Sequence record: SRR20825010_1978
Strand: one strand, 5' to 3'
DNA length: 44,009 bases
The translations under genes and the position numbers were made by a program. The stretch's first letter is position 1. Each line of letters starts with the position of its first letter. This document shows positions 4,098 to 18,928 of the stretch, piece after piece. The notes under the pieces were generated by a model. The model saw only the letters and a program-made list of their open reading frames with translations. It was not told the DNA's origin and did not search any database.

Positions 4098-5707
4098 TGG
4101 CGACTCTCGACAGCGCACTTGACCCCAACAGCGAAGAATACCGCCAGAACCGCGACGCCTTGCTCGCGGCCGTGGAGGAATTCCGTGCCATCGAACAGGC
4201 CGTGGTGGATACCGCGGAAAGCAAACGGGCCAAGTTTGAAAAACGTGGCCAACTGCTTCCCCACGAACGTATCTCCCGGCTGCTGGATGCAGGCTCCCCG
4301 TTTTTAAGTCTGATGAACCTGGCCGGCTACAAGATGCACGACGACAAAGACGGCACCGAAGCCGGCGGCAGCACCATTGCCGGCATTGGCTATGTGTCCG
4401 GTGTCCGCTGCCTGGTCACCGCCTCCAACTCGGCCATCAAGGGCGGCACTATTTCTCCCTCCGGCCTGCACAAGACCCTGCGCCTGCAGCGCATTGCGCT
4501 GGAAAACAAACTGCCGGTGGTCAGCTTGGTGGAATCCGGCGGTGCTAACCTGAACTATGCCGCAGAAGTGTTCGTGGATGGCGCCCGCACCTTTGCCAAC
4601 CAGGCACGCCTGTCCGCCGCAGGCATTCCGCAAATCACCGTGGTTCACGGCAATGCCACCGCCGGCGGTGCCTACCAGCCAGGCCTGTCCGATTACGTGG
4701 TGGTGGTCCGCGAACGTGCCAAGATGTTTCTGGCCGGCCCGCCGCTGCTGAAAGCCGCTACCGGTGAAATTGCCACCGACGAAGAGCTGGGCGGCGCAGA
4801 GATGCATGCCGGCACCGCTGGGACAGCCGAGTACCTGGCGCAGTCCGATGCAGACGGTATCAGCCAGGCTCGAGATCTGGTGAAACTACTGGGCTGGCGC
4901 CGGGCGGCAGCCGAGGCGCCCGAGCATGAAGCACCTAAATTCCCGCCTGAAGAACTGCTTGGCGTGGTGCCTGCCGATGCCAAGAAACCCTACGACGTAC
5001 GCGAAATCATTGCCCGCATCGTCGATGGTTCCGACTTTCTGGATTTCAAAAACGAGTGGGATAGCGCCACCGTCTGCGGCTGGAGCACCATCGAAGGCAA
5101 GCCCGTGGGCATCATTGGTAATAACGGACCGATTACGCCACGCGGCGCCGCCAAGGCAGCCCAGTTTATCCAGCTGTGCGATCAGACCCGCCGCCCCTTA
5201 CTGTTCCTTCACAACACTACCGGCTTCATGGTCGGTACCGATGCGGAACAGAACGGGGTGATCAAAAACGGCTCGAAAATGCTGCAGGCTGTGGCCAACG
5301 CACGGGTGCCGAAAATTTCCGTGCTGGTGGGCGGCTCCTACGGGGCCGGCAATTACGCCATGTGCGGCCGGGGACTGGATCCGCGCTTCATCTTTGCCTG
5401 GCCGAATTCCAAAGTCGCGGTCATGGGTGGCCAACAGGCCGGCATGGTGCTGCGCATTGTGGCCGAGGGCAAACAACGGGCTAACGGTATCGAACCCGAC
5501 CCGAAAGTCCTCGACATGCTGCAACAGACCACCGCCCAGAAACTGGACAGCCAGTCCACTGCGCTCTACGGCACCGCCCGGCTTTGGGACGACGGCATTA
5601 TCGACCCCCGCGACACCCGCCGGGTGGTGGCCTACGCGCTGGATATTTGCGATGACGCAGAACAACGCCAGCTACACCCGAATTCGTTCGGGGTGGCGAG
5701 ACTTTAA
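4097..5707 (+). CDS. atuC: geranyl-CoA carboxylase, carboxyltransferase (beta) subunit
   Basis: Carboxyltransferase motifs (VESGGANL, GFMVG, GGSYGAGNYAMCGR). TAATG overlap with atuB. Confidence 0.9.
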   Translation: MATLDSALDPNSEEYRQNRDALLAAVEEFRAIEQAVVDTAESKRAKFEKRGQLLPHERISRLLDAGSPFLSLMNLAGYKMHDDKDGTEAGGSTIAGIGYVSGVRCLVTASNSAIKGGTISPSGLHKTLRLQRIALENKLPVVSLVESGGANLNYAAEVFVDGARTFANQARLSAAGIPQITVVHGNATAGGAYQPGLSDYVVVVRERAKMFLAGPPLLKAATGEIATDEELGGAEMHAGTAGTAEYLAQSDADGISQARDLVKLLGWRRAAAEAPEHEAPKFPPEELLGVVPADAKKPYDVREIIARIVDGSDFLDFKNEWDSATVCGWSTIEGKPVGIIGNNGPITPRGAAKAAQFIQLCDQTRRPLLFLHNTTGFMVGTDAEQNGVIKNGSKMLQAVANARVPKISVLVGGSYGAGNYAMCGRGLDPRFIFAWPNSKVAVMGGQQAGMVLRIVAEGKQRANGIEPDPKVLDMLQQTTAQKLDSQSTALYGTARLWDDGIIDPRDTRRVVAYALDICDDAEQRQLHPNSFGVARL

Positions 5708-5711
5708 AGGC

Positions 5712-5869
5712 AGTTAAAAGCTGAAAGTTCAAAGTTAAAAAGCGCGAATGATGCAAAGCCAAACGGACAAAGCTCAGCCCGCGCACGAAGACTGAGGCGC
5801 GGCTACCGATGACTTCAGTCAATGGCATGCCCGGCCCGCGTTTCAACTTTGAACTTTAAGCTTTCAACT
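5712..5869. repeat. heptamer-arm inverted-repeat element A1 (158 bp)
   Basis: Left arm AGTTAAA AGCTGAA AGTTCAA AGTTAAA AAGCGCG; right arm CGCG T TTCAACT TTGAACT TTAAGCT TTCAACT. Confidence 0.9.
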
Positions 5870-5908
5870 CAAACAACAGAACATAACGAACACAACAGGG
5901 AGCCTCCC

Positions 5909-7066
5909 ATGCAATTCACTCAGGAACACGAAGAACTTCGCCGTACAGTCCGTAATTTTGTCGACAAGGAACTGAACCCCCATGTCCGCGAATGGGAAGA
6001 TGCCGGACGCTTCCCGATTCACGAAGTGTTCAAGAAAATGGGCGACCTGGGGCTGCTCGGCGTCACCAAACCGGAAGAATTTGGCGGCATGGGCCTGGAC
6101 TATTCCTACGGCATGGTCATGAGCGAAGAAATGGGCCGCGTCCATTGTGGCGGCGTACCGTTGGCCGTTGGGGTACAGACTGACATGGCCACCCCCGCCA
6201 TCGCCCGGTTCGGTTCCGATGAACTGCGCCGTAATTACCTTGCTCCGGCCATTGCTGGCGACATGGTGGCCTCCATTGCCGTCTCCGAGCCCCATGCCGG
6301 TTCCGACGTGGCAGCGGTAAAAACCACCGCGGTGAAAGATGGCGACGACTACGTGATCAACGGTACCAAGATGTGGATCACCAACTCCCCCAGCGCGGAT
6401 TTCTTCTGCCTGCTGGCGAACACCTCCGACGCCAAGCCTCACGTCAACAAATCCCTGATCGTGGTGCCCAAGGATGCCGCTGGAATCACCGTGGACAAGC
6501 CTCTGAACAAGCTGGGCATGCGCTCTTCGGAAACTGCCCAGGTGTTCTTCGATAACGTGCGCGTGCCCCAGCGCAACCTGATCGGTCAGGAAGGCATGGG
6601 CTTCATGATGCAGATGATGCAGTTCCAGGAAGAGCGTCTATTTGCCGCGGCCAATAGTCTCAAGGGCATGGAACATGTCATCGATGAAACCATCGCCTAT
6701 GCCAAAGATCGCAAAATATTCGGCATGTCACTGATCGACAACCAGAGCGTGCATTTCCGTCTGGCCGAACTGCAAACCGAGGTCGAAGCCCTGCGCGCCC
6801 TCACCTACCAGGCCTGCGAAATGTATGTGAATGGCAAGGACGTCCTGCAGCTGGCCTCCATGGCCAAACTGAAAGTGGGCCGCCTGAGCCGTGAAGTCGC
6901 TGACAGCTGCCTGCAGTACTGGGGCGGTAACGGCTTCATGTGGGAAAACCCCGCCGGCCAGCTCTACCGTGATGGCCGCCTGGGTTCCATCGGTGGCGGC
7001 GCCGACGAAGTCATGCTAGGCATTATCTGCAAGACCATGGACATCCTGCCGGGCAAGAAAAAATAA
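5909..7066 (+). CDS. atuD: citronellyl-CoA dehydrogenase (acyl-CoA dehydrogenase)
   Basis: ACAD motifs (SEPHAGSDV, GTKMWITN, IGGGADEVM). Start at MQFTQEHEEL after GGGAG. Confidence 0.9.
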   Translation: MQFTQEHEELRRTVRNFVDKELNPHVREWEDAGRFPIHEVFKKMGDLGLLGVTKPEEFGGMGLDYSYGMVMSEEMGRVHCGGVPLAVGVQTDMATPAIARFGSDELRRNYLAPAIAGDMVASIAVSEPHAGSDVAAVKTTAVKDGDDYVINGTKMWITNSPSADFFCLLANTSDAKPHVNKSLIVVPKDAAGITVDKPLNKLGMRSSETAQVFFDNVRVPQRNLIGQEGMGFMMQMMQFQEERLFAAANSLKGMEHVIDETIAYAKDRKIFGMSLIDNQSVHFRLAELQTEVEALRALTYQACEMYVNGKDVLQLASMAKLKVGRLSREVADSCLQYWGGNGFMWENPAGQLYRDGRLGSIGGGADEVMLGIICKTMDILPGKKK

Positions 7067-7067
7067 C

Positions 7068-7226
7068 AGTTCAAAGTGAAAAGTTGAAAGTTCAAAAGCG
7101 CGGGCCGGCATTGTGCCATAAGCATTACACCCTTCCCGCGCTCAAATGTTGCAACGCGAATCAAGAAAATTTCATCTGACGTCAGAGCCTATTCGTATTT
7201 CAACTTTGAACTTTTAACTTTCAACT
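7068..7226. repeat. heptamer-arm inverted-repeat element A2 (159 bp)
   Basis: Left arm AGTTCAA AGTGAAA AGTTGAA AGTTCAA AAGCGCG; right arm CGTA T TTCAACT TTGAACT TTTAACT TTCAACT. Confidence 0.9.
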
Positions 7227-7248
7227 AGCTTTTCGAACGAGGCGACTT

Positions 7249-8055
7249 ATGAAGCTCCCGACAACCGAAACAATCACCCTTAACCAGGACGGCCCGGTTC
7301 TGCATATCACCTTGAACCGGCCCGAAAGCCGCAATGCCATGAGCCTGACCATGGTGAACGAATTGATGGCGGTGTTTGAAAGCGTGGCCGGCGATACAAC
7401 CATTCGTGCCATCGTTCTGCGCGGCGCCGACGGCCATTTCTGTGCCGGCGGCGACATCAAGGACATGGCCGGAGCGCGACAGCAGGCCGCCGGCGGCGAC
7501 GATAATGCCTTCCAGGCGCTGAACCGTCGTTTCGGGGAAATGATTACCGCTGCCAACCGCCAGCCACAGGTAGTGATCACCGTGCTGGAAGGCGCTGTGT
7601 TGGGGGGCGGGTTCGGCCTGGCGTGTATCTCGGACGTGGCCATCGCCAGCGAAGACGCCACCTTCGGCCTGCCGGAAACCGGGCTGGGAGTCATCCCCGC
7701 ACAAATTGCCCCCTTTGTCGTAGAACGCATCGGCCTGACCCAGGCCCGCCGCCTGGCCTTGACTGGCGTACGTTTCAAAGGAAGTGAAGCCTTGCGGCTG
7801 GGCATCGTGCATGAGGTGGCAAGTGACTCCATGGCGCTGAATGCTGCCCTGGAGAACACCCTGTCGGCCGTTCGCCGCTGTGCGCCACATGCCAATCGCG
7901 TCACCAAAGAGCTGGTATTAAACGTGGGCCACATTCCCATGGGCACCTTGCTGGACCAGGCCGCCACTGACTTCGCCGCTGCGGTCAACAGCGAGGAAGG
8001 ACAGGAAGGCACCATGGCGTTCGTGCAAAAACGCCCGGCGGCCTGGAATCAATAA
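7249..8055 (+). CDS. atuE: isohexenylglutaconyl-CoA hydratase (crotonase family)
   Basis: LNRPESRNAM, FCAGGDI, GGGFGL and FGLPETGLG motifs, and its operon position. Confidence 0.88.
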   Translation: MKLPTTETITLNQDGPVLHITLNRPESRNAMSLTMVNELMAVFESVAGDTTIRAIVLRGADGHFCAGGDIKDMAGARQQAAGGDDNAFQALNRRFGEMITAANRQPQVVITVLEGAVLGGGFGLACISDVAIASEDATFGLPETGLGVIPAQIAPFVVERIGLTQARRLALTGVRFKGSEALRLGIVHEVASDSMALNAALENTLSAVRRCAPHANRVTKELVLNVGHIPMGTLLDQAATDFAAAVNSEEGQEGTMAFVQKRPAAWNQ

Positions 8056-8066
8056 GCACATACGTT

Positions 8067-8141
8067 GCGAGGAACGAGTGACGAGTCGTGAAACCAGGTT
8101 GCCTCGTTTTTGCATTTCGCTACTCGTTACTCGTATCTCGC
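8067..8141. repeat. heptamer-arm inverted-repeat element B (ACGAGTN units, 75 bp)
   Basis: GCGAGGA ACGAGTG ACGAGTC GTGAAA, 21 nt, TTTCGC TACTCGT TACTCGT ATCTCGC. Confidence 0.8.
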
Positions 8142-8217
8142 TCCTGAGCGGTTCGTGTCCTCAAGCACCGCTCCTGAGGGAAAGCATTTTCAACCGGAAC
8201 ACCGGTAAGGAATCACA

Positions 8218-10188
8218 ATGAGCTTTGAAAAAATCCTGATTGCCAACCGTGGCGAGATTGCCTGCCGGGTCATCGCCACCGCCCAGTCCCTGGGCTACCG
8301 GACCGTGGCGGTCTATTCCGAGCCGGATGCCGGTGCCCGTCATGTGCAACTGGCTGACGAAGCGGTTTGTATCGGCCCGGCCCTGGCCAGCGCTTCCTAC
8401 CTGAACATGGACGCCTTGCTCGCCGCCTGCCAGCAAACCGGCGCTGATGCGGTGCATCCCGGTTACGGCTTTCTCTCCGAAAATGCTGCTTTTTCCAAGG
8501 CATGCAAAGAGGCGGGCATTACCTTTATCGGCCCCGATGAAGACGCCATTCAGCTGATGGGCTCCAAACGGCTTTCCAAGATTGCCATGCAGGACGCCGG
8601 TGTGCCGTGTATCCCCGGCTACCAGGGCGAAGAACAAAGTGACGAACGCTTACAGCAGGAAGCCGAACGTATCGGCCTGCCCTTGATGATCAAAGCCAGT
8701 GCCGGCGGTGGCGGTCGGGGTATGCGCGTGGTCACCGACGCAGGGGATATCAGCGCACAGCTGAAAAGCGCCCGTCAGGAAGCCAAGAACGCGTTCGGCA
8801 GTGACGAGCTGATCCTGGAACGCGCCGTGCTGCAGCCCCGGCATGTGGAAATTCAGGTATTCGGTGACCGCCACGGCAACGTGATCCATCTGGGCGAGCG
8901 CGACTGCTCCGTGCAACGCCGCCACCAGAAAGTGGTGGAAGAAGCGCCCTCCCCGGCAGTGGACGAGTCCCTGCGCCAACGCATGGGCGAGGCCGCCGTA
9001 CAGGCCGCCAAGGCCTGCCAGTATGTGGGCGCCGGCACGGTGGAATTCCTGCTTGCTCCGGAGGGCGACTTCTTCTTCCTGGAAATGAACACTCGCCTGC
9101 AGGTAGAGCATCCGGTCACCGAGCTGGTCACCGGTCTGGATCTGGTCGCCTGGCAAATCAAGGTCGCTAGAGGTGAAGCCCTGCCACTAACCCAGGACCA
9201 GGTACAGCTCACCGGCCATGCCATGGAAGTGCGCCTCTATGCGGAAGATCCGGCGCAAAATTACATGCCACAGACCGGCCCGGTATTGCGCTGGCAACCG
9301 GCCAGAGGTGACGGAATTCGCATCGACCACGGCCTGGTGGAAGGCGCCGAGATTGGCAGCCATTACGACCCCATGCTGGCCAAGATCATTGCCGTGGGTG
9401 ATAGCCGCGAAGACGCCCGCCGCCGCCTGATTCGTGCCGTGCAAGACACCACCCTGATGGGCGTCAACGACAACCGTCAGTTCCTGGCAGCGATCCTCGC
9501 CCATCCAGTTTTTGCCCGTGGTGACGCAACTACCGCCTTTATTGGGGATGACTTTGCCGACGACAGCAGCCTGGCCGGCGATGCCCCGGACGCCCTGTTA
9601 TGGGCACTGGCTGCCCTGTATCACTGTCGCAGCGAAACCCCCTCTGATGCCCTGCGCGGCTGGCACTCCAGCACCTTGGGCGCACAGCCGGTCACCCTGC
9701 GCTGCGGCGAGCACACCCAGACTCTCTACATTCGCTATCAGGATGACGCGGCACAAATCAGCGTCAGCGATGCGGCACCAGCCATCACTCTGGCACCACT
9801 CAGCGACAACCGCGTGGCTGTCAACGGCGTCGCTGTGGACGTCACCGTGTTACAGGATGGCAAGCAATACTGGCTGCAATGTCAGGGCCGCACCGCCTGC
9901 TTCACCGATGATACCCATACCGCAGCCGGCAGCAGCGACCAGGCCGGTTCCGGCCTGATCCGAGCCCCCATGGACGGCGCCATTATCGACGTGAACGTGA
10001 AAGCCGGCGATACCGTCAGCAAGGGGCAGGTTCTGGTGGTCATGGAGGCCATGAAAATGGAACACAGCCTGAAAGCAGACTGCGACGGCAAGGTAGAGGC
10101 GCTCGATCTGAGCCCCGGCAGCCAGGTAAAACGCCAGCAATTGCTGGTTACCGTCACCCCGGATGCAGCTGTCACATCCGGTCAGTGA
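8218..10188 (+). CDS. atuF: geranyl-CoA carboxylase alpha subunit (biotin carboxylase plus biotin carrier)
   Basis: KILIANRGEIA, HPGYGFLSENA, EMNTRLQVEHPVTE and the C-terminal EAMKM biotinylation motif. Confidence 0.92.
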   Translation: MSFEKILIANRGEIACRVIATAQSLGYRTVAVYSEPDAGARHVQLADEAVCIGPALASASYLNMDALLAACQQTGADAVHPGYGFLSENAAFSKACKEAGITFIGPDEDAIQLMGSKRLSKIAMQDAGVPCIPGYQGEEQSDERLQQEAERIGLPLMIKASAGGGGRGMRVVTDAGDISAQLKSARQEAKNAFGSDELILERAVLQPRHVEIQVFGDRHGNVIHLGERDCSVQRRHQKVVEEAPSPAVDESLRQRMGEAAVQAAKACQYVGAGTVEFLLAPEGDFFFLEMNTRLQVEHPVTELVTGLDLVAWQIKVARGEALPLTQDQVQLTGHAMEVRLYAEDPAQNYMPQTGPVLRWQPARGDGIRIDHGLVEGAEIGSHYDPMLAKIIAVGDSREDARRRLIRAVQDTTLMGVNDNRQFLAAILAHPVFARGDATTAFIGDDFADDSSLAGDAPDALLWALAALYHCRSETPSDALRGWHSSTLGAQPVTLRCGEHTQTLYIRYQDDAAQISVSDAAPAITLAPLSDNRVAVNGVAVDVTVLQDGKQYWLQCQGRTACFTDDTHTAAGSSDQAGSGLIRAPMDGAIIDVNVKAGDTVSKGQVLVVMEAMKMEHSLKADCDGKVEALDLSPGSQVKRQQLLVTVTPDAAVTSGQ

Positions 10189-10400
10189 CAATTTAGCCAC
10201 GGAGAGGGATGCTCCGCTGTGCTCCAATAATTTGCACCGGGCAAATTGGGCCAAAACGGGTCCCGACAATTTCCCCGGGCACTGCCACCGGGCAGGGCGC
10301 TTGCCCTGCCCTGGTGCTACGGTTAAGGTAAGCGCCCGCTTGCCAACACTGGGCTCCCGGCTTTTCCGGGCCTTCCAAGAACACAGACAATGGAGATCCT

Positions 10401-12230
10401 ATGAGCAACGCCGACATCATCACGTTGCCCAAGCTTCTGTCCAAGGTTCCAGAGGTAATCACCAATCTTCCCGGCCTGATCAAGGGCTCGAAGATGGCGA
10501 AAATCACTGACACCAGCAAGCCATTGGGGCTGGGCGTTGCTATCGAGCGCGCCACCAGCATGAACCCGAATGGCGCTGCCGTGATCTACCAGGACACAGA
10601 ACTTACTTACAAGCAGTTCAACGCCTGGGCCAACCGCCTGGCAGACTATCTGGCCTCTATCGGCCTGAAAAAAGGCGATACCGTTGCCGTCAACGTGGAA
10701 AACCGCCCCGAGCTATTGGCCACTGTTCTTGCCTGCGCCAAACTGGGCGTCTGTGCGGCCCTGATCAATACCTCCCAGCGCGGCAAGGTACTGATCCATA
10801 GTTTCAATCTGGTGAAACCCAAAGCCGCCATCGTTGGCGAAGAATTGATTGATGCCGTGGAAGAAGTCCGCGGTGATCTGGATCTGAAAGACAATTTCTT
10901 CTTCTTTGCGGATCAGAACACCCTGGAAAACCCCGGTGAAGCCCCGGCGGGTTACAAAAACCTGGCCAGCGAAAGCCGTGACTGCTCCAGTGAGAACCCG
11001 GCGTCCAGCAAGCAGACATTCCTGCGCGACCCGCTGTTCTACATTTATACCTCCGGCACCACTGGTCTGCCCAAGGCGGTGGTCTTCAACCACGGCCGCT
11101 GGGAAAAAGCCTATGGTGGCTTCGGCTTCTCCGCCGTACGCCTGACCAAGGATGACCGCATCTACACCACCCTGCCGTTCTACCACGCCACCGGCATGGT
11201 GATCTGCTGGGCGTCCGTGATCGCCAGTGCCGGCGCCATTGTCATTGCGCGTAAATTCTCCGCCAGTGGCTTCTGGGACGACATCCGTCGCCATAACTGT
11301 ACCGCCTTCGGCTATGTCGGCGAGCTGTGCCGTTACCTGCACGAACAACCAGAGAAGCCGAACGATCAGGACAACAAGGTCCACACCATCGTCGGTAACG
11401 GCCTGCGCCCGAGCATCTGGAAAGACTTCAAGAACCGCTTCGGCATTGATCGTGTGGTCGAGCTGTATGCCTCCTCGGAAGGCAACGTGGCTTTCACCAA
11501 CGTGTTCAACTTCGACAACACAGTGGGTTTCTCCCCGGTCAGCTACGCCATCGTCAAATACGACAAAGAGCGTGACGAGCCAGTGCGTGACAGCAAAGGC
11601 CACATGATCAAGGTCGGCAAGGGTGAATCCGGGCTGATGCTGGGCGAGATCACCGAGAAAACTCCTTTCGACGGCTACACCGACCCGGAGAAAACAGAGA
11701 AATCCATCTACCGTGATGTCTTTGCCAAAGGTGATGCCTGGTTCAACACCGGCGACATGATGCGCGATATCGGTTTCCGCCACGCCCAGTTTGTGGACCG
11801 CCTGGGGGATACCTTCCGCTGGAAAGGTGAAAACGTATCCACCACCGAAGTGGAACAGATTCTTGATGGCTACGACGGCATCCAGGAATCCGTGGTCTAC
11901 GGTGTGGAAATTCCCAACACCAACGGCCGTGCCGGCATGGGCCAGATCCGCCTGACCGGTAACCACAGCGACTTCGACTTCGAGGGCCTGTGTGCCTACC
12001 TGAAGCGGGAATTGCCGCCTTATGCCATTCCGGTTTTCCTGCGTATCAACGAAGAAGCCATGGAAACCACTGGCACCTTCAAGCACCAGAAAAACAAGCT
12101 CAAGGAACAGAAGTATGACCTGAGCCAACAAAGCAACGCGGTGTACGCGCTGCTACCTGGTGAAAGCTGCTACCAGAAACTGGACGAAGCCACGCAAAAC
12201 GGCATCGACAGTGGTGAGTACCGCTTCTAG
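10401..12230 (+). CDS. FATP/very-long-chain-type acyl-CoA synthetase
   Basis: AMP-binding YIYTSGTTGLPKA and the FATP signature DRLGDTFRWKGENVSTTEVE. GGAG RBS. Confidence 0.9.
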   Translation: MSNADIITLPKLLSKVPEVITNLPGLIKGSKMAKITDTSKPLGLGVAIERATSMNPNGAAVIYQDTELTYKQFNAWANRLADYLASIGLKKGDTVAVNVENRPELLATVLACAKLGVCAALINTSQRGKVLIHSFNLVKPKAAIVGEELIDAVEEVRGDLDLKDNFFFFADQNTLENPGEAPAGYKNLASESRDCSSENPASSKQTFLRDPLFYIYTSGTTGLPKAVVFNHGRWEKAYGGFGFSAVRLTKDDRIYTTLPFYHATGMVICWASVIASAGAIVIARKFSASGFWDDIRRHNCTAFGYVGELCRYLHEQPEKPNDQDNKVHTIVGNGLRPSIWKDFKNRFGIDRVVELYASSEGNVAFTNVFNFDNTVGFSPVSYAIVKYDKERDEPVRDSKGHMIKVGKGESGLMLGEITEKTPFDGYTDPEKTEKSIYRDVFAKGDAWFNTGDMMRDIGFRHAQFVDRLGDTFRWKGENVSTTEVEQILDGYDGIQESVVYGVEIPNTNGRAGMGQIRLTGNHSDFDFEGLCAYLKRELPPYAIPVFLRINEEAMETTGTFKHQKNKLKEQKYDLSQQSNAVYALLPGESCYQKLDEATQNGIDSGEYRF

Positions 12231-12251
12231 CGCACTCGCTGCAAAGAAGCA

Positions 12252-12281
12252 CAAAAAAGGCGCCTCACGGCGCCTTTTTTG
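12252..12281. terminator. bidirectional intrinsic terminator
   Basis: CAAAAAAGGCGCC-TCAC-GGCGCCTTTTTTG. Confidence 0.88.
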
Positions 12282-12373
12282 GTTCTGCACAGTCCACAGA
12301 TAAACACATCGCAGGCACCAGCCTGTTAACACTTGCACGGCACTCAGCTGTAACGACTCAATCACCAGCTCAG

Positions 12374-13062
12374 TTACTCACACCCACCTTTCTATCCACG
12401 ACATCTGTGGATAACACTGTTAGCGAGTGTCGGATAACGCGACCAAAGCCAGCCATGGCGGGCCATCCAGCGATTTGCGTGGTTTTTCACCAAGCTGACA
12501 CAGGCTCGGAAAAGCGACGAAAGGTCAAGCCCGTCAGGACTTTTTTCTGTGCTGGGGATTATTCCACAAAAGCTGTGCATAACTTTGTGAACAACCTGAC
12601 TAAAAGCCGCCGAAGCGCCCGGCATACGCCGCTTCCCCCAAACTGGTTTATTTTTACGCTAATCATAAACCATTGATTATTCAGTGACTTATTGGTGCTT
12701 TTTTACACTACTCACAGAGAGAGGTTGGCCCGGTTGGCAAAATGGCGGGAGTAATCAGCTTGTGCAAAAGCGTCAGACAAATCATATATCTGTCATAACA
12801 AACCTGTGTTTTCGGTCTATGGCGAATCAGTGTGTTCCTGGCTGGCAGACTTTTTCCACAGATCCTGTGGGTAACCCTGTGCATAGACGGTAGAAAACAT
12901 TGCAACATCACCCAAAAATCACGCCTCAGGACGACATGACTGTTTTTTAACCAATCTTTTTTTTATTTTTAAATCATGAGGTTACGCTATTTTTTATGGG
13001 TTTTTAACGTAGTTGTCATTTTTTTCAGCAGAAAAAGAGCATTGACAAAAAACTGTGTACAA
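12374..13062. promoter_or_regulatory. DnaA-box cluster with IHF/Fis-like sites (DARS-like)
   Basis: Three units of box, 5 bp, inverted box, 3 bp, box at 12392-12426, 12560-12594 and 12852-12886. Extra boxes at 12374, 12761 and 13054. Perfect IHF consensus at 12666-12678 (minus strand). Confidence 0.75.
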
Positions 13063-13153
13063 AATTGGGGCAGCCACACGTTACCAAGGGTGACACCCTG
13101 GTACAGCCGTGCATATAACAGGCCACTTTCCTTTTCCTCTATCCGGTTCGCCA

Positions 13154-13200
13154 CTGCCACCCTGCCCCTCAAGCACACACCTTCAGGGCAAGAGTGGCAG
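13154..13200. other. stem-loop just downstream of gcdH
   Basis: CTGCCACCCTGCCC...GGGCAAGAGTGGCAG imperfect inverted repeat with no U-tract. Confidence 0.4.
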
Positions 13201-13205
13201 AGTTG

Positions 13206-14372
13206 TTAGCCGAAGGCCTGCAAGCCGGTCTGTGCCCGGCCCAGTATCAAGGCGTGAACATCGTGCGTACCTTCGTAGGTATTTACCGCTTCCAGGTTCA
13301 TCACATGGCGAATCACATGGTATTCATCGCTGATCCCATTGCCGCCATGCATGTCACGGGCCTGACGGGCGATATCAATGGCCTTGCCACAATTATTGCG
13401 CTTCATCAGCGAGACCATTTCCGGTGACCAGTCTCCTGCATCCATCAACCGGCCCAGCTGCAAGGCGCCCTGCAGACCCAGGGTGATCTCAGTTTGCATA
13501 TCCGCCAGCTTTTTCTGTATCAGCTGAGTCGCCGCCAATGGACGGCCAAACTGTTTGCGGTCCAGGGTGTACTGGCGAGCCGCCTGCCAACAGAATTCCG
13601 CCGCGCCCATGGCGCCCCAGCTAATCCCGTAGCGCGCCTTGTTCAGGCAGCTGAACGGCCCCTTCAGGCCTTCCACGTCTAACCGGTTTTCTTCCGGCAC
13701 AAAGCAATCGTCCAGCGAGATCTGCCCGGTGATGGAGGCACGCAGAGAGAACTTGCCTTCGATCTTCGGCGTGCTGAAGCCGTCAAAGCCCCGCTCCACT
13801 ACAAAGCCGTTGATCTTGCCGTCCAGGTTGGCCCACACCACCGCCACATCCGCAATCGGCGAATTGGTAATCCAGGTCTTGGCCCCATTGAGCAGGTAAC
13901 CCCCATCCACTTTTTTGGCACGGGTGCTCATGGAGCCCGGGTCTGAACCGTGGTCCGGCTCGGTCAGGCCAAAGCAGCCCACCCATTCACCGGTGGCAAG
14001 CCTGGGCAGGTATTTCTCGCGCACCGCTTCACTGCCGAAGGTGTAGATAGGGAACATCACCAGGGACGACTGCACGCTCATGGCTGAACGGTAACCGGAA
14101 TCCACCCGCTCCACTTCACGGGCAACCAGGCCATAACTGACATGGTTTACGCCGGCGCCACCATATTGCTCAGGAATGGTGGGGCCGAGAAAGCCCAGTG
14201 CGCCCATTTCCGTCATGATTTCCCGGTGGAAAATCTCGTGACGGTTCGCCTCAAGCACGCGCGTCATCAACTTGCTCTGGCAGTAGTCCTGCGCCGCATC
14301 ACGGATCATTCGCTCGTCTTCAGTGAGCTGGGTTTCCAGCAACAAGGGGTCTTTCCAGTCAAATCTCTGCAT
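13206..14372 (-). CDS. gcdH: glutaryl-CoA dehydrogenase
   Basis: [11 protein letters not shown]-terminus, [47 protein letters not shown] at 14372 after AGGA. Confidence 0.92.
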
Positions 14373-14402
14373 CTTCAATCCTGTTCAAGTCATTCCTGTA
14401 AG

Positions 14403-14469
14403 GCGGAGATCGGCTTACGCTGATTTCCGCTCTATCGGGTTTTCGTTATTCACTATTAATTATTCACTG
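14403..14469. repeat. REP-like hairpin plus solo heptamer arm
   Basis: GCGGAGATCGGC-TTAC-GCTGATTTCCGC (14403-14430). Minus strand CAGTGAA TAATTAA TAGTGAA TAACGAA (14469-14442). Confidence 0.55.
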
Positions 14470-15666
14470 TCTTTCAATCACCATGGCCACACCCTGGCCC
14501 ACCCCGATACACAGGCTCACCAGTGCATAGCGACCGCCAGTGGCTTCCAGCTGCCGCGTGGCGGTGAGCGCCAGGCGGGCGCCGGAGGCACCCAGCGGAT
14601 GGCCCACGGCGATAGCGCCGCCATTCGGGTTCAGGCGTTCATCATCGCCGGCCAGCCCCAGCTGCTTACAGCAACCCAACACCTGGGCGGCGAATGCCTC
14701 ATTGATTTCGATGACATCCATCTGCTCCAGCCTCAGGCCGGCCCTGGCCAATGCCTTGTTACAGGCCTCAACCGGCCCCAACCCCATGACGCGAGGCGCC
14801 ACACCAGCAACGGCCCCCGCCAGAATACGGGCACGCGGTGCAATGCCAGCCGCTTCTCCGGCCGCTCGGGAGCCCACGATCAGCGCCGCCGCCCCATCAT
14901 TGACCCCCGACGCATTGCCGGCAGTAATCACCCCACCGTCTACAATCGCAGGCAGTTTGGCCAGCTTATCCACGCCGGTTCCCGGACGCGGGTGCTCGTC
15001 GTCAGTCACCGTCAGTGGATCTTTCTTGCGGCCCTGCGGCACCGTTACCGGTGTCATTTCTTCACGGAAGAAGCCCCGCTCGCGGGCGTCCTCGTAGCGC
15101 TGCTGGGATCGGGCGGCAAAGGCGTCCGCGGATTCACGGCTGATAGCCAGATCCTCAGCCACATTCTGGGCCGTCTCCGGCATGGTATCGTCGCCAAACT
15201 GCTGGAGGATTGCCGGGTTGGGGAAACGGGCACCAATGGTGCTGTCGAAAATCGTCATGTCCCGGCTGAAGGCTTTCTCTGCCTTGGCCATGACAAAGGG
15301 GGCGCGGCTCATGGATTCCGTGCCGCCGGCGATAACCAGATCGCCCTCACCCACGGTGACCATACGGGCGGCATCCAGGGTCGCGGCCAGGCCACTGCCA
15401 CAAAGCCGGTTCACAGTAATTCCAGCCACCGATTCCGGCAGACCCGCGAGCAGGCCGGCATGGCGAGCCACGTTACGGGCATCCTCACCGGCCTGGTTGG
15501 TGTTGCCGATGACCACGTCTTCAAAGCCCGCAGGCTCGAAACGATTACGCTGCACCAGCTCGCGGATCACCCCGGCCAGCAAATCATCCGGCCGCACCGG
15601 CGCCAGCGCGCCACCGTGGCGGCCAAAGGGGGTTCGCAGACCATCGTAAATATAGGCATCAAGCAT
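14464..15666 (-). CDS. 3-oxoadipyl-CoA/acetyl-CoA C-acyltransferase (PcaF/PaaJ-type thiolase)
   Basis: NQAGEDARNVAR, NRLCGSGL, NEAFA, GHPLGASG and CIGVGQG motifs. Start MLDAYIYDG after GGAGA. Confidence 0.9.
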   Translation of the reverse strand: MLDAYIYDGLRTPFGRHGGALAPVRPDDLLAGVIRELVQRNRFEPAGFEDVVIGNTNQAGEDARNVARHAGLLAGLPESVAGITVNRLCGSGLAATLDAARMVTVGEGDLVIAGGTESMSRAPFVMAKAEKAFSRDMTIFDSTIGARFPNPAILQQFGDDTMPETAQNVAEDLAISRESADAFAARSQQRYEDARERGFFREEMTPVTVPQGRKKDPLTVTDDEHPRPGTGVDKLAKLPAIVDGGVITAGNASGVNDGAAALIVGSRAAGEAAGIAPRARILAGAVAGVAPRVMGLGPVEACNKALARAGLRLEQMDVIEINEAFAAQVLGCCKQLGLAGDDERLNPNGGAIAVGHPLGASGARLALTATRQLEATGGRYALVSLCIGVGQGVAMVIERQ

Positions 15667-15682
15667 AAGCATTCTCCGAATG

Positions 15683-15837
15683 TGCAGCAGGCTCCACGCA
15701 ACACGCAACAACGCGTTAACACCCCTGATCAGAAGCCACCGCCGTGCCGCGAATCCGGGGCCGGACGCGACCACCAAGAGACAGTCCAATCCACTGACTT
15801 ACAGCGTGTTGTTGCGTGCAGCTTGAAGCGTGCCGCA
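15683..15837. repeat. heptamer-arm inverted-repeat element C (GCWNCAM-like units, 155 bp)
   Basis: Left arm GCAGCAG GCTCCAC GCAACAC GCAACAA CGCG; right arm CGTG TTGTTGC GTGCAGC TTGAAGC GTGCCGC. The arms match at 27/35 positions. Confidence 0.85.
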
Positions 15838-16017
15838 GCAAGCTCGTCCGCTATGCGGAATGATGTTTTGAAACTTGACGGGCAGAATAGGCCGTGACAG
15901 AGTGCGATGCAAGTGGTGCAACCGGGCAGTCGCAAGACATGCCTCCCCAGGCCGCAACCACCCAACAAGAGTCTGCCGTTACCGCCCCGAACCCCATTAT
16001 AGCCGCCGGACCCAGCC

Positions 16018-17175
16018 ATGATTCGTGATGCCGAAATTCTCTCGCAGTTGACTGACACCATTGCCCGTTTTGTACACGAACGACTCGTTCCCGCCGAACA
16101 GCAAGTGGCCGAAAGTGACGCCATTCCCGACGACATTATCGCCGACATGAAGGCCATGGGCCTGTTCGGATTGTCGATTCCGGAGGAGCTTGGCGGACTC
16201 GGGCTAACCATGGAAGAGGAAGTCATGGTGGCCTTTGAACTGGGTCGCACCTCCCCCGCGTTTCGCTCCCTCATGGGCACCAACAATGGTATCGGCGCCC
16301 AGGGCATCCTGATTGATGGCACCGACGAACAGAAACAAAAATACGTTCCCCAGCTCGCCACCGGGGACGTGATTGGCGCCTTCTGCCTGACCGAACCGGA
16401 CGTGGGCTCCGACTCCGGCGCAGTGAAAACCCGTGCCGACAAAGACGGCGATCACTATATCCTCAACGGCACCAAGCGCTTTATCACCAACGGCCCCCAT
16501 GCCGGCCTCTTTACCGTGATGGCGCGCACCAACCCGGATATCGCGGGCGGTGGCGGTGTTACCGCCTTTATCGTCGAGGGAGACACCCCCGGCATTCACC
16601 GCGGCAAGGCGGACGTGAAAATGGGCCAGAAAGGCGCCCACACCTGCGACATCATTTTTGAAAATTGCCGGGTCCCCGCAGAGAACATTATCGGCGGCCA
16701 GGAAGGCAAGGGGTTCAAAACCGCCATGAAAGTGCTGGACCGGGGCCGGCTGCATATTTCTGCCATCTGCGTGGGCGTTGCCTACCGGCTCATCGAGGAC
16801 GCGGTGAATTTTTCTGCCGAGCGCAAACAGTTCGGCAAGCCCATCATCGAGCACCAGCTGATTCAGGCCATGCTGGCTGACTCCCGGGCAGAAGCCTTCG
16901 CCGGCCGCTCCATGGTACTGGAAGCCGCCCGCAGCAAGGACCGGGGAGAACGGGTCAGCCTGGACGCCTCCTGCTGCAAGCTGTTCTGCTCGGAAATGGT
17001 AGGACGGGTGGCCGATCGTGCCGTGCAGATTCATGGCGGCGCAGGCTACATGGCGGACTATCCGGTGGAACGGTTCTATCGCGATGTGCGGCTGTTCCGT
17101 ATTTACGAAGGCACCACCCAGATTCAGCAGATAGTCATCGCCCGGGAACTGGCGCGGCAGGCGAAAAGCAGTTGA
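16018..17175 (+). CDS. acyl-CoA dehydrogenase
   Basis: FCLTEPDVGSD, GTKRFITN, QIHGGAGY and RIYEGTTQIQ motifs. Confidence 0.92.
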   Translation: MIRDAEILSQLTDTIARFVHERLVPAEQQVAESDAIPDDIIADMKAMGLFGLSIPEELGGLGLTMEEEVMVAFELGRTSPAFRSLMGTNNGIGAQGILIDGTDEQKQKYVPQLATGDVIGAFCLTEPDVGSDSGAVKTRADKDGDHYILNGTKRFITNGPHAGLFTVMARTNPDIAGGGGVTAFIVEGDTPGIHRGKADVKMGQKGAHTCDIIFENCRVPAENIIGGQEGKGFKTAMKVLDRGRLHISAICVGVAYRLIEDAVNFSAERKQFGKPIIEHQLIQAMLADSRAEAFAGRSMVLEAARSKDRGERVSLDASCCKLFCSEMVGRVADRAVQIHGGAGYMADYPVERFYRDVRLFRIYEGTTQIQQIVIARELARQAKSS

Positions 17176-17361
17176 ACGTTCAAAGTGGAAAGTTCAAAAG
17201 CGCGTTCCATGCCAAAGGTAACTGATGCAATCCGTGCCCGCGACCACTGGCCGATTCGCGATGCAAGCATCGCGAATAACATCGGTCGGCACGGCGCCGG
17301 CTTTGTTCAATCTGCAGCAACAGTGATTCGCGTTTCAACTTTGAACGTTACACTTTCAACT
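17170..17361. repeat. heptamer-arm inverted-repeat element A3 (192 bp)
   Basis: Left arm AGTTGAA CGTTCAA AGTGGAA AGTTCAA AAGCGCG; right arm CGCG T TTCAACT TTGAACG TTACACT TTCAACT. Internal perfect hairpin ATTCGCGATGC-AA-GCATCGCGAAT. Confidence 0.9.
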
Positions 17362-17366
17362 CATCC

Positions 17367-18761
17367 ATGCCGCTGACCCGCCTCCTCGATTACACCCTCC
17401 CCCTGTGCATGATCGGCACAATCCTGTCTCTGGTGTTCGATCTGGACGCCGGGGCCTGGCTGGCACGAATTGCCTTACTGGTTTATCTGCTGGTGCAATG
17501 GCCCCGGCAAGCCCCCATGGCCAAAGGCATTCTGCTGGTAGTGATCGCCATGGCCGGCGTTGTTATCTGCCGTGAAGCCCAGCCTGTTCCGGTTTTACTG
17601 CAGGCCCTGGACCGCCTCTGTTTTTTCGCCACTTTCGTTTCATCACTGGGCCTGCTGCGCGTCTCCGCCATGCGCTCGCGATTGGTCCGCGATGCGGGGC
17701 AAACCCTGATTCGCCAAAAACCTGCGCTGCGCTACCCCACCCTGTCTCTGGGGACCGCACTGTTCGGCATTATCATCAACATCGGAGTACTAAACCTGTT
17801 CGGCGCCATGGTGATGCGCAGCAATACGCTCAAGGCGGCAGGCGGACACGATGATATTCAACAGGCCCGCGAGCGGCGGATGATGTTGTCGATTTTGCGC
17901 GGCTTTGCCCTGGCCCCCCTGGTATCGCCACTGGGAGTAACCATGGCGGTAATTCTGGCGAATATGCCCAGCCTCACCTGGGCCAGCCTGGCCCCGGTGG
18001 CGCTGCCCACCGCCGGGCTCTTTTTTCTGCTCGGCTGGTGGCTGGACTGGCAACTGCGCCCCAAGCAACTGGCTGACCGTGTACCTGAAACACAGCCGCC
18101 CTCATTGTCGCCACTTATTCGCTTCACCCTGCTCGCCGTACTGATCACCCTGAGCGTCTTTGCCGTTGCCCTGGCGGGGAATTTGCGTTTACCCGTGGCC
18201 GTCCTGATTGCCTGCCCGCTTGCTGCCATCCTGTGGATGGCAAAACAGAGACGGCGACTTGGGGGCGGCACCGGGCTGCGCCGCTCTCTGACCTTGCTTG
18301 CCCGTCATTCGCGCTTGATCTTCGGAGCCAATCGAGGGGAAATTGCCGTGCTGGGTGGGTCCGCCTGCCTGGGCGCACTGATCACTCCCCTGGTAGATCA
18401 ACACGCCTTGCACGATCTGCTACTGGCCACCCATCTGCAAGGCGCCGCCATGGCCGTGGCGGCCATGTTGCTGGTGGTCGGGTTAGCGCAAGTGGGGCTG
18501 AACCCAATCGTGTCTGTCACCCTGCTCGCCTCCTTGCTGGGTGACGGCGTCGGGGTGGACCCGAGAGTCCTGGCGGTCGGGTTGATGTGTGCCTGGAGTC
18601 TGTCGATGATTTCCTCCCCCTTCACCGCCTCCATGCTGGTACTCAGCCAACTGATTCATCGCTCCCCCTACCGGATCGCCTGGCACTGGAACGGGCTGTT
18701 CTTTGTGTTGGTGGTGCCAATGCTGGCGTTGTGGATTGGGGTAATGACGCAATGGTTGTGA
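17367..18761 (+). CDS. polytopic membrane protein, probable carboxylate transporter (IT/DctM-like)
   Basis: About 12 hydrophobic segments, in a CoA-catabolic gene context. The family assignment is tentative. Confidence 0.65.
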   Translation: MPLTRLLDYTLPLCMIGTILSLVFDLDAGAWLARIALLVYLLVQWPRQAPMAKGILLVVIAMAGVVICREAQPVPVLLQALDRLCFFATFVSSLGLLRVSAMRSRLVRDAGQTLIRQKPALRYPTLSLGTALFGIIINIGVLNLFGAMVMRSNTLKAAGGHDDIQQARERRMMLSILRGFALAPLVSPLGVTMAVILANMPSLTWASLAPVALPTAGLFFLLGWWLDWQLRPKQLADRVPETQPPSLSPLIRFTLLAVLITLSVFAVALAGNLRLPVAVLIACPLAAILWMAKQRRRLGGGTGLRRSLTLLARHSRLIFGANRGEIAVLGGSACLGALITPLVDQHALHDLLLATHLQGAAMAVAAMLLVVGLAQVGLNPIVSVTLLASLLGDGVGVDPRVLAVGLMCAWSLSMISSPFTASMLVLSQLIHRSPYRIAWHWNGLFFVLVVPMLALWIGVMTQWL

Positions 18762-18765
18762 GAGC

Positions 18766-18928
18766 AGTTGAAAGTTCAAAGTGTAGAGTTGAAAAGCGCG
18801 CGCGAGCCTGTCGTGAACAGTTAAGCCGTGCCCGCGTTGCGCACTTTGTGGAAACGCGGAGGAAAGCACTTATCGGATGGCTTTGCCCATTTTCGCGCTT
18901 TTTGACTTTACACTTTGAACTTTCAACT
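18766..18928. repeat. heptamer-arm inverted-repeat element A4 (163 bp)
   Basis: Left arm AGTTGAA AGTTCAA AGTGTAG AGTTGAA AAGCGCG; right arm CGCGCTT TTTGACT TTACACT TTGAACT TTCAACT. The arms match at 32/35 positions. Confidence 0.92.

Follow-up and report, generated by a model that had tools for sequence, protein, structure and literature searches.

The question raised by this locus is why several gene spacers in a 44,009-nucleotide stretch of DNA (record SRR20825010_1978; hereafter, the window) are occupied by similar palindromic sequences, and what kind of element these represent. An earlier note had described four such copies, and all four were present at exactly the coordinates it gave (A1–A4 below), each flanked by arms of four 7-nt AGTTNAA words in inverted orientation. 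When we computed the positions of the CGCG-type boxes between the arms, the successive gaps in A1–A4 were 33, 34, 34 and 32 nt, then 14, 14, 47 and 18 nt, and finally 35 nt in every copy, as the note had written. We also found a fifth copy, in which the same core is carried by another arm word.

5712..5869, no strand assigned: copy A1, in the atuC-atuD spacer; arms at 5712-5739 and 5842-5869; CGCG boxes at 5743, 5780, 5798 and 5837.
7068..7226, no strand assigned: copy A2, in the atuD-atuE spacer; arms at 7068-7095 and 7199-7226; CGCG boxes at 7099, 7137 and 7155, and CGTA at 7194.
15683..15837, no strand assigned: fifth copy, same core with another arm word (CACGCAA type); CGCG boxes at 15712, 15748 and 15766, and CGTG at 15805; gaps of 32, 14 and 35 nt.
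17170..17361, no strand assigned: copy A3, in the spacer from an acyl-CoA dehydrogenase gene to a 464-aa ORF; CGCG boxes at 17201, 17239 and 17329, and CACG at 17290.
18766..18928, no strand assigned: copy A4, between convergent genes; arms at 18766-18793 and 18901-18928; CGCG boxes at 18797, 18833, 18855 and 18894.

Copies A1–A4 measure 158–192 bp and contain no PF05635 ORF. The loop of A3 reaches 47 nt because a small nested palindrome (at about 17254-17277) lengthens it. A covariance model recovered A3, which was absent from its training set (43 bits, E 2.5e-8), and scored the fifth copy at 18.5 bits (E about 0.01, a rough value); the latter was also detected as an inverted pair. In a repeat search, the left ends formed a four-copy family of 41 nt (76–100% identity to the reference copy) and the right ends a family of 35 nt (80–100% identity), and the arms appeared as inverted pairs in A4 (18766-18800/18894-18928, 35 nt, 91% complementary) and A1 (5712-5744/5837-5869, 33 nt, 88% complementary). 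A 20-nt arm pattern allowing up to three mismatches gave four matches in the window compared with 0.01 expected, a number that none of 100 shuffled sequences reached. Folding was also far stronger than that of dinucleotide shuffles (for A1–A4, RNA z = –5.3, –6.9, –3.5 and –9.7; DNA z = –4.7, –4.0, –4.5 and –8.3), with A4 RNA reaching –81.4 kcal/mol and the arms (4 × 7 nt per side) pairing as a basal stem in all folds. The copies belong to a dispersed family of structured palindromic elements and did not arise by chance.

The majority arm unit is A-G-T-T-N-A-A, in which six of the seven positions are 87–97% conserved and position 5 is free. Variant heptamers are indeed common to both arms of a copy, AGCT in A1 and AGTGTA in A4 (alignment columns 10/165 and 18/157), from which the earlier note had proposed selection for pairing. 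Within the family, this proposal is weakly borne out: the fifth position was complementary in 110 of 233 heptamer pairs, compared with an expected fraction of 0.32; deviations from the word were confined to one arm in 159 cells and complementary in both arms in 25; and, by RNAalifold, 3 of 27 pairs showed a compensatory change. The signal for pairing was strong when word classes were compared across genomes (see below). The stem is thus imperfect, about half of the heptamer pairs being mismatched at position 5 and most deviations being uncompensated, which would not be expected under selection for a perfect stem.

The interiors had been described as unrelated sequences around a fixed scaffold, and this part of the description did not hold. 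They are homologous and diverged, with a median pairwise identity of 0.71 among the young copies of one Alcanivorax genome (G013), so that the constant spacing reflects inheritance with few indels. This young subfamily possesses a conserved core of ~95 nt, including a specific motif in the loop, at over 30 unlinked loci; among 32 copies, 5 of 496 core pairs were at least 0.90 identical, all at different loci, and one copy folds at –84.1 kcal/mol (z = –10.2). Because the core is shared, the fixed geometry was inherited from a master element of ~150 bp. A central-hairpin pattern accordingly matched G013 25+33 times (control, 0+0) and the genome nearest to the window, G001, 3+1 times. This core consists of two ~40-nt modules, bounded by CGCG and inverted relative to one another, with a 14-nt loop in the middle, and it is combined with at least four different arm words. 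Four exact CGCG boxes were present in 18 of 35 paired elements (gaps of 31–37, 13–19 with one of 40, and 31–36 nt), and another 21 elements from four arm-word classes showed gaps of 30–35, 14 (in 12 of the 21) and 29–38 nt; the scaffold is therefore not special to the window. A CRISPR-like array, an idea prompted by the variable segments of 32–35 nt, was rejected: the conserved parts are inverted rather than direct, and the segments are homologous among young copies.

How widely is the family distributed? In Alcanivorax, a genus of marine oil degraders, an exact two-heptamer pattern was found in 23 of 24 genomes, with 0 to 257 matches per genome; the family's one other genus had no match. Two of 16 other families yielded a few matches (1+1 in one; 5, equal to the control, in the other). 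The 15 loci recovered as core-pattern records all came from Alcanivorax, Alloalcanivorax or Alcanivoracaceae, plus one unclassified Pseudomonadota metagenome-assembled genome. Among the genomes searched, the family is confined to Alcanivorax. No Rfam family matched the elements and no published description of the family was found in the literature.

The position of the elements relative to genes was far from uniform. With gene calls from a crude codon model, the spacers of 66 elements were co-directional in 37 cases, convergent in 20 and divergent in 1 (8 undetermined), so that divergent spacers accounted for 1 of the 58 elements with both neighbours called. Of 38 co-directional cases, 26 had the upstream stop codon inside the element or no more than 12 nt away from it. 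In the window, the atuC stop codon ends at 5707, 4 nt upstream of A1, and the stop codon upstream of A2 ends at 7066; in A3, the first heptamer contains the TGA of the upstream gene (17173-17175) and the next ATG (17367) is 5 nt downstream of the right arm; and A4 is preceded by a stop codon ending at 18761 and followed by that of a minus-strand metallo-beta-lactamase-fold gene, starting at 18939. The divergent genes on either side of the fifth copy encode a thiolase (minus strand) and an acyl-CoA dehydrogenase (plus strand). Palindromes of this type occupy three successive atu spacers. A1 and A2, with both neighbouring genes, were bridged by contigs from two RNA libraries of one study, although such assembled contigs are blind to RNA ends, processing, strand and level and may include DNA carry-over.

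These positions raise the possibility that the host selects the elements as RNA punctuation of operons: the 28-bp stem would set the 3΄ end or the stability of the upstream message, or would provide an RNase III site that uncouples the amounts of atuC, atuD and atuE, the fold being kept while the sequence drifts. The abutment of copies on stop codons, their rarity in divergent spacers, the run of three atu spacers and the RNA-library contigs are all in line with this reading. REP elements near stop codons are reported to affect upstream expression in E. coli, which also speaks for it. Furthermore, the similarly built stems of intervening sequences (IVSs) in 23S rRNA are RNase III substrates; in Coxiella, as far as the available text describes them, the IVS has a 28 bp stem of tandem heptamers that vary in number between strains, and RNase III cuts it mid-stem (PMC4990558).

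We compared orthologous spacers to see how the elements change over time. At two spacers followed through 23 genomes, many different arm words were found; arm complementarity was 0.82 and 0.81 within elements, compared with 0.60 and 0.54 across genomes, and joint word change of both arms was also seen at two further orthologous spacers. In the first of these spacers (slot 1), a heptamer-array palindrome follows the same stop codon in at least 21 of the 23 genomes despite complete word turnover, which again favors operon punctuation. However, the same spacers lack the element in other congeners, where they are empty or contain plain sequence or unrelated REPs: this applies to slot b in G005, G021 and G023 (in one empty G005 site, TGA is followed by six bases and then ATG) and to slot 2, with REPs alone, in five genomes. 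Therefore, no particular gene pair needs the element. The range of 0 to 257 matches per genome, the near-identical burst in G013, which looks like proliferation rather than local selection, and the periodic mismatches in the stem also count against host selection. So does the absence of strand bias, since 5 of 10 orientable co-directional copies were oriented with the genes and 5 opposite to them (9 ambiguous copies excluded). We accordingly regard operon punctuation as unlikely.

The same comparisons revealed changes to whole cores and spacers. Between G013 and G017, one core was 0.92 identical as the reverse complement and 0.70 on the same strand, while its flanks were collinear (0.88), and a similar inversion was found between G013 and G021. 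In G001, the slot of A2 contains an unrelated 217-bp element between blocks aligned at 99.6% and 97.9% identity. Thus, at the DNA level, copies persist for a long time at the 3΄ ends of genes and from time to time increase in number; exchange between the arms inverts the core; a new arm word is taken on by both arms jointly; and whole spacers are replaced between close genomes. At conserved spacers, vertical descent with change in place accounts for the data no less well than mobility does.

Another explanation is that the elements are by-products of mutation, that is, heptamer microsatellites generated by replication slippage beside existing hairpins or terminators, with one arm copied onto the other by quasi-palindrome (template-switch) correction and with gene conversion in place of transposition making the copies alike. 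The number of arm units varies from 2 to 7 or more, with more than 15 on one side of some cassettes; closely related copies (L141) differ in heptamer order, yet their cores are 0.95 identical; and related arm words differ by single substitutions, a variant unit being found in both arms of A1 and A4. Surveys have noted an excess of heptamer repeats in bacteria and, in their available portions, suggest polymerase slippage (PMC4679880, PMC4692102), which is consistent with such an origin. However, slippage cannot create the ~95-nt core at the unlinked G013 loci, and the arm count clusters at four units on each side. Moreover, the extracted G013 cores were always inside heptamer arrays (25/25; the window's word in 21 and two other words in 4). 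An origin by mutation only is consequently a distinctly improbable account.

We further compared the elements with known mobile and repetitive systems. The earlier note had likened the layout to REPINs and IVSs, and both likenesses were upheld. REPs, BIMEs and REPINs (PMC3116915, PMC3337134 and PMC2817692) are high-copy extragenic palindromes at gene 3΄ ends, as the present elements are. A REPIN joins two imperfect palindromes of ~40 nt in inverted orientation across a short spacer, similar to the inverted doublet of CGCG-bounded ~40-nt modules in the Alcanivorax core, and a BIME combines with other repeat modules as a mosaic, as the Alcanivorax element does. An absence of target duplication and long persistence at orthologous sites with bursts of copying are further shared features; no direct repeat flanked the 5 window copies or 25 G013 copies, in accordance with the claim that a target-site duplication is missing. 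In contrast, REPs carry a GTAG/CTAC tag that is absent from the window copies and the G013 consensus, and, unlike in REPs, every Alcanivorax core is enclosed by tandem 7-nt arms whose word changes. The elements are not built from GTAG REPs, which the genus possesses separately, some of them flanking Y1-transposase genes (two of ten PF01797 loci). With regard to a RAYT link, neither arms nor core occurred within ~1.5 kb of these ten loci (G001, G013, G017 and G021).

Convergent GGGAATC heptamer pairs in Xanthomonas (Rehm et al. 2015, PMC4692102) are a second relative in layout. According to the available text, 70–75 opposite-strand pairs per genome lie mostly between co-oriented genes within 50 bp of a stop codon, are rare between divergent genes and are transcribed, all of which resembles the Alcanivorax elements. 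However, the word in Xanthomonas is rich in G and was investigated for its ability to form quadruplexes, whereas AGTTSAA and the other words here are not G-rich and the majority unit lacks a G tract, and that portion of the description mentions neither a conserved core between the arms nor a link to PF05635. The elements also resemble MITEs in their length (~150 bp), terminal inverted repeats, lack of coding capacity, dispersed copies and recent burst in one genome. Unlike MITEs, they lack a target-site duplication, and their arms consist of internal repeats whose word changes around an unaltered core. No parent insertion sequence sharing their ends was found among the 34 window ORFs or at the Y1 loci of the four genomes. 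The scan of these ORFs detected no transposase or integrase Pfam domain, as the earlier note had stated for the window, and no transposition event, donor or enzyme was identified in the window and the Alcanivorax genomes compared.

The suggestion that longer copies might carry a four-helix-bundle gene was borne out in a congener. PF05635 (S23p, the 23S-rRNA IVS protein, a pentameric four-helix bundle) gave 56 matches in 21 of the 24 genomes. At locus L115 of G013, a PF05635 gene (E 9e-32) is flanked by four AGTTSAA heptamers on each side, and inverted period-7 heptamer arrays bracket all 50 PF05635 genes of the genus that were inspected by eye. Because the same arm device brackets every inspected gene, we regard the element as a gene-less relative of IVS-type cassettes. 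The AGTTSAA word was found in only 1 of the 50 cassettes, and G001, despite ~30 element copies, has no AGTTSAA-armed PF05635 gene (2/2 cassettes inspected); the gene-less core and the PF05635 cassette are alike in their arms only.

The available description of the IVSs of Coxiella burnetii, Leptospira and others (PMC4990558) contains the same terminal-inverted-repeat stem of ~28 bp, built from tandem heptamers whose number varies between strains, as the Alcanivorax arms are, and the same PF05635 cargo that has such arms in Alcanivorax. Both IVSs and window elements reside in transcribed DNA without destroying it. The IVSs, however, lie in helix 25 or 45 of 23S rRNA, whereas the five window copies lie between protein-coding genes, and Rfam detected no rRNA in the window or beside three G013 loci. 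ORF-bearing IVSs enclose a PF05635 ORF, in place of which the window copies have the CGCG-bounded double module. Processing by RNase III is a feature of IVSs and may, by analogy, apply to the window elements.

In a quick tree of 48 proteins, the PF05635 clades followed the arm word of their own cassette, in conflict with genome kinship. This agreement, the recognition-like word with one free position and the inversion of the core between the arms could reflect docking at the DNA level, in which phased 7-bp words bind an oligomeric protein (PF05635 or a nucleoid protein, for example) that organizes DNA or promotes recombination. However, one genome contains at least eight unrelated words, whereas PF05635 genes number only 1–4 in a genome and 3 of the 24 genomes lack them, and linkage explains the agreement equally well, because gene and arms move as one cassette. 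We therefore consider docking very unlikely.

Taken together, the observation in the earlier note was confirmed and its interpretation partly supported. The elements are, somewhat probably, Alcanivorax-specific gene-less palindromic mosaic repeats of ~150 bp, IVS-type relatives with a REPIN-like cargo that are mainly selfish or near neutral; the copies have the look of a selfish element that is tolerated more than that of a dedicated gene switch. Two inverted arrays of about four 7-nt words form a stem of ~28 bp, and between them lies the double CGCG-bounded module with its 14-nt loop. The arrays probably turn over by slippage, and templated correction or selection may keep the two arms alike. 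The element would be tolerated inside operons because its transcript folds into one long hairpin, which might take the insert out of the way and bring the next start close to the stop codon; this hairpin is probably cut by RNase III, as IVS stems are. For the copying of elements to new sites, the PF05635 cassette is no more than a candidate. A bolder idea, which we regard as doubtful at best, is that heptamer arrays serve as an evolvable container for cargo in transcribed DNA (operon spacers or 23S rRNA), that the ~28 bp stem is removed or neutralized in RNA, that each PF05635 protein reads or propagates its own word, and that gene-less copies with a REPIN-like CGCG core are non-autonomous riders. 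If true, this would explain why PF05635 clades track arm words, why a change of word affects both arms, and why the only young AGTTSAA burst is in the genome that has the AGTTSAA-armed cassette.

In practical terms, the elements fill operon spacers up to the stop and start codons and create false ORF extensions in Alcanivorax annotation, and short-read assemblies break at expanded heptamer arrays. To our knowledge, some thirty years have passed without an explanation of IVS elements and the S23p/PF05635 protein, and heptamer repeats, although they are the commonest long microsatellites in bacteria, have no agreed role. In the 24 comparable Alcanivorax genomes, the same spacers can be traced through word turnover, core inversion, cassette replacement and a recent burst, and the genus is therefore a concrete system in which to study how paired heptamer arrays are maintained. 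It is likewise suited to asking whether RNase III processes such arrays in messenger RNA, as in rRNA, and whether they have any connection with PF05635.

All four copies of the element that the earlier note had delineated in the window were recovered with the same boundaries. At its left end, each copy has four 7-nt units of the AGTTNAA type (hereafter, the 7-nt unit is called a word) and then A(A)GCGCG; the right end carries the same arrangement in inverted form. A repeat search of the window placed the left ends in one four-copy repeat family and the right ends in another, and also recovered the inverted pairs (for example, 35 nt with 91% complementarity in A4). A 20-nt arm pattern matched four times in the window, compared with 0.01 matches expected. 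The spacing of the CGCG-type boxes was as previously written, with gaps of 33/34/34/32, 14/14/47/18 and 35/35/35/35 nt for A1 to A4, respectively. These copies folded far better than shuffled sequences (RNA, z = -3.5 to -9.7; DNA, z = -4.0 to -8.3), and the arms form the basal stem of the folds. A fifth element displayed the same box geometry (32/14/35) and a different arm word.

Copies of the element in the window
5712-5869: A1, spacer between atuC and atuD, atu cluster
7068-7226: A2, spacer between atuD and atuE, atu cluster
15683-15837: fifth copy, with a different arm word
17170-17361: A3, spacer between an acyl-CoA dehydrogenase gene and an ORF without a family match
18766-18928: A4, spacer between convergent genes

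The ORF flanked by A3 and A4 (17367-18761, 464 aa) matched no Pfam family at E ≤ 1e-5. A long ORF on the plus strand (14287-15897), which reads through the fifth copy, was rejected as spurious; the real gene is a minus-strand thiolase (14464-15672; Pfam, E 1e-67). In this GC-rich genome, such false extensions of ORFs arise from heptamer arms and antisense frames. The central loop of A3 is 47 nt long because a small near-perfect palindrome (17254-17277) is nested within it, and loop-nested insertions were also seen in congeners, in which loops reach 30-66 nt. The atuE-atuF spacer contains a short heptamer palindrome (8064-8142) with another word (CGAG type) and a small AAACC...GGTT-like centre, followed by a REP-like inverted pair at about 8140-8200. 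This palindrome scored weakly in the covariance model described below (12.1 bits, E 0.27); together with A1 and A2, it means that three successive atu spacers harbor heptamer palindromes.

We then determined the range of the family. A covariance model trained on 41 family members, with A3 outside the training set, recovered A3 at 43 bits and the fifth copy at 18.5 bits. Genome-wide counts were made in the nearest genome, G001, and in congeners. In G001, the two-heptamer pattern gave 61+66 matches, compared with 22+36 for the controls. From G001 loci and the window we extracted 35 paired elements (86-194 bp). In 18 of these, all four CGCG boxes are exact, and the gaps between them measure 31-37, 13-19 (40 in one case) and 31-36 nt. 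The exact two-heptamer pattern was found in 23 of the 24 genomes of the genus Alcanivorax and was essentially absent from 17 other genomes searched, and the public records with the core motif belong to Alcanivorax or its close kin. No Rfam match was obtained at the elements, whether the whole window was scanned at the gathering threshold, positions 5600-7350 at E up to 1, or three loci of the genome G013. Likewise, the open-access articles searched contained no published description of this family.

The genome with the most AGTTSAA matches was G013 (257; the next highest had 105), which is a single 4.0-Mb contig and the only genome in which a young burst of copies was seen. A central-hairpin pattern gave 25+33 matches in G013, none in the control and 3+1 in G001. 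Between their arms, the G013 copies have a conserved core of ~95 nt in common: the median pairwise identity of the core among 32 copies was 0.71, and five pairs at different loci reached 0.90-0.95. One young copy folds into a single, almost continuous hairpin (-84 kcal/mol, z = -10.2). The interiors, which had looked unrelated at first, are thus homologous, and the window copies show constant spacing because they inherited their length from an old master element. This master has diverged by substitutions and a few indels; it is not a scaffold around unrelated inserts. Because the 32-35-nt segments are homologous among young copies, a CRISPR-like reading of them was also rejected.

The core is symmetric and laid out like a REPIN: its two CGCG-bounded modules of ~40 nt are arranged face to face around a 14-nt loop. 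The same core can occur with different arms. The window's word surrounds the core in 21 of 25 G013 copies and two other words do so in the remaining four; across the genus, 21 scaffold-bearing elements fall into four word classes with one geometry. Composite forms also occur in G001, in which inverted arrays of another word enclose a lone CGCG module together with one AGTTSAA array. These composites adjoin sequence resembling the leader of the PF05635 cassettes discussed below.

The earlier note had compared the element with REPINs and rRNA intervening sequences (IVSs) and had stated that it is not built from classical GTAG REPs; the interpretation is partly right, in that the element resembles both REPINs and IVSs. 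The element lacks the GTAG tag, and no copy lies beside Y1 (RAYT) transposase genes at 10 loci in four genomes; the GTAG REPs of the genus, in contrast, are found beside such genes. As had been noted, the element flanks show no target duplication, and none of the 34 window ORFs scanned encodes a transposase domain. Convergent heptamer pairs of Xanthomonas (PMC4692102) are similar in arrangement and position. Relative to the pairs described there, the Alcanivorax element differs in not being G-rich and in having a conserved core.

Arm variants had been reported to co-occur within A1 and A4, and selection for pairing had been proposed. The variant units do occur in both arms of these copies, and the signal for selection on pairing is weak within the family. 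Of 27 pairs evaluated with RNAalifold, three show compensatory change, and these include the two cases just mentioned; covariation within the family is weak because the arm columns hardly vary. Heptamer position 5 was complementary in 110 of 233 unit pairs, compared with an expected fraction of 0.32, and the other six positions were complementary in 0.91-1.0. Departures from the word were confined to one arm in 159 cells; in 25 cells they were complementary between the arms, a number that includes some artefacts of short arms. The match of an arm to its own partner (0.84) was close to that with other elements of the same word class (0.83), compared with 0.66 for other classes. These pairing counts indicate that the shared constraint is the use of one word by both arms. 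That the arrays are a docking site for a protein is very unlikely in our estimation. With respect to the interior, the choice between two local hairpins (boxes 1/2 and 3/4) and one long hairpin was abandoned, as the four bases adjacent to the boxes support differing pairings by copy (28, 28, 37 and 13 of 72 possible pairs). RNAalifold retains only the arms, the outer CGCG and a central CCGCG/CGCGG stem, and we claim no interior structure.

Four spacers were traced across the genus: those after atuC and atuD, and two beside young G013 copies. After atuC, a heptamer-array palindrome starts a few bases past the stop codon in at least 21 of 23 genomes, and no fewer than eight different words are represented among them; the arm-to-arm match was 0.82 within an element and 0.60 between genomes, even with 15 register shifts allowed. 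After atuD, we found an element of the window's type, its core combined with another word, GTAG-type REPs (alone or accompanied by a short heptamer palindrome), or another heptamer expanded on one side. In G001, the A2 slot is occupied by an unrelated element of 217 bp, and the blocks on either side are 99.6% and 97.9% identical to the window. The G020 spacer after atuD (L062; 768 bp) contains a run of N and apparent parts of other genes, and was excluded from the arm statistics. Elsewhere, 3 bp at window position 21105/21109 correspond to 302 bp in G001 (L031, reverse complement 18016-18316), between blocks of 97.9-99.4% identity. The contents of the two spacers beside young G013 copies also vary between genomes.

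Variant order and unit number both change quickly, as in a microsatellite. Different words found at a given slot frequently differ by one substitution, and the data fit stepwise word change that spreads by slippage; we infer that such change is copied or selected across the stem. That the elements are a pure by-product of mutation appears to us quite unlikely. The possibility that each genome has its own word, raised by G007, in which both slots carry one word, was dropped, since words differ between slots within one genome.

Heptamer arrays also surround genes for the 23S-rRNA IVS protein S23p (PF05635), of which there are 56 matches in 21 of the 24 genomes. Inverted period-7 arrays of many words bracket all 50 of the PF05635 genes read by eye. 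These cassettes lie in a few fixed housekeeping spacers. Judged from our reading of the flanking translations, these are the spacer between metK and ahcY and those upstream of radC, of nrdR and of a cysN-type gene. The upstream array of many PF05635 genes is expanded to 10 to >20 units, with ~4 units downstream (L103, L114, L116, L117, L167, L168, L172, L105). Several contigs end (L009/L032, L052) or carry runs of N inside heptamer arrays; these repeats therefore break short-read assemblies. The longer copy with a four-helix-bundle ORF that the earlier note had envisaged was found in a single case, a G013 PF05635 cassette with four AGTTSAA units per side. G001 contains ~30 old copies, and neither of the two cassettes inspected there is AGTTSAA-armed; CAAGCT-type gene-less copies are present in genomes whose cassettes bear other words. 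Only the G013 AGTTSAA case fits a relation between cassette word and abundance of gene-less copies with that word, and we claim no correlation.

In a maximum-likelihood tree of 48 PF05635 proteins (quick search, SH-aLRT support only), the proteins grouped by arm word, against genome kinship. Because protein clades follow the arm word, gene and arms appear to move as a unit, and the agreement may reflect linkage alone. The sequences suggest that whole cassettes may undergo allelic replacement. The G001 cassette groups with those of G021, G018, G004 and G017; in the same spacer, the close relatives G020, G010, G024 and G008 carry another clade and word. In PMC4990558, the Coxiella IVS is described as having a 28-bp terminal stem and tandem heptamers whose number varies among strains, enclosing an S23p ORF and being cut mid-stem by RNase III. 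The anatomy described there is the same as that of our element; location and cargo differ. In the open-access articles searched, we found no link of PF05635 cassettes to heptamer arms outside rRNA.

We further analyzed the gene context, calling neighbouring genes with a crude self-trained codon model in place of GC content at codon positions, by which sense and antisense frames were inseparable. Co-directional genes flank 37 of 66 elements, convergent genes 20 and divergent genes one; eight had no assignment. Of 38 co-directional cases, 26 have the stop codon of the preceding gene inside the first heptamer or no more than 12 nt away from it. The next start codon lies at a more variable distance (5 to >100 nt), with a Shine-Dalgarno sequence present in some cases and absent in others. 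In A3, the stop lies within the first unit and the next ATG 5 nt past the last. TGA and ATG are parted by 155 bp plus 7 nt at one G013 copy and by six bases only in G005, whose empty site, 17 bp as extracted, consists of the stop codon, these six bases and the first bases of the next gene. If the predicted hairpin formed in the message, stop and start would come to lie side by side, which is a plausible reason for tolerance of the element. Contigs of two RNA libraries from one study bridge A1 and A2 with both neighbouring genes; they are compatible with read-through transcription, and prove neither transcription nor processing. At the borders between arm and core, contig joints (5745/5746 to 5836/5837; 5745 to 7198) whose sides are only 21-35 nt long were taken as cross-mapping from other copies of the family.

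The core is inverted between G013 and G017 (identity of 0.92 when one core is reverse-complemented and 0.70 when it is not; the flanks are collinear, at 0.88), and also between G013 and G021. Inversion through exchange between the inverted arms explains the lack of a relation between core orientation and gene direction. No strand bias relative to transcription was seen: five of 10 orientable copies run with the genes and five against, nine ambiguous copies being left out. The alternative that the host selects the element as RNA punctuation is one that we regard as unlikely. We instead lean towards a palindromic mosaic element that is long-lived and largely selfish, that proliferates occasionally and whose folding out of the message lets it be tolerated at the ends of genes. 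Comparison across the genus gives evidence that words turn over in concert, that the core inverts and that cassettes are replaced.
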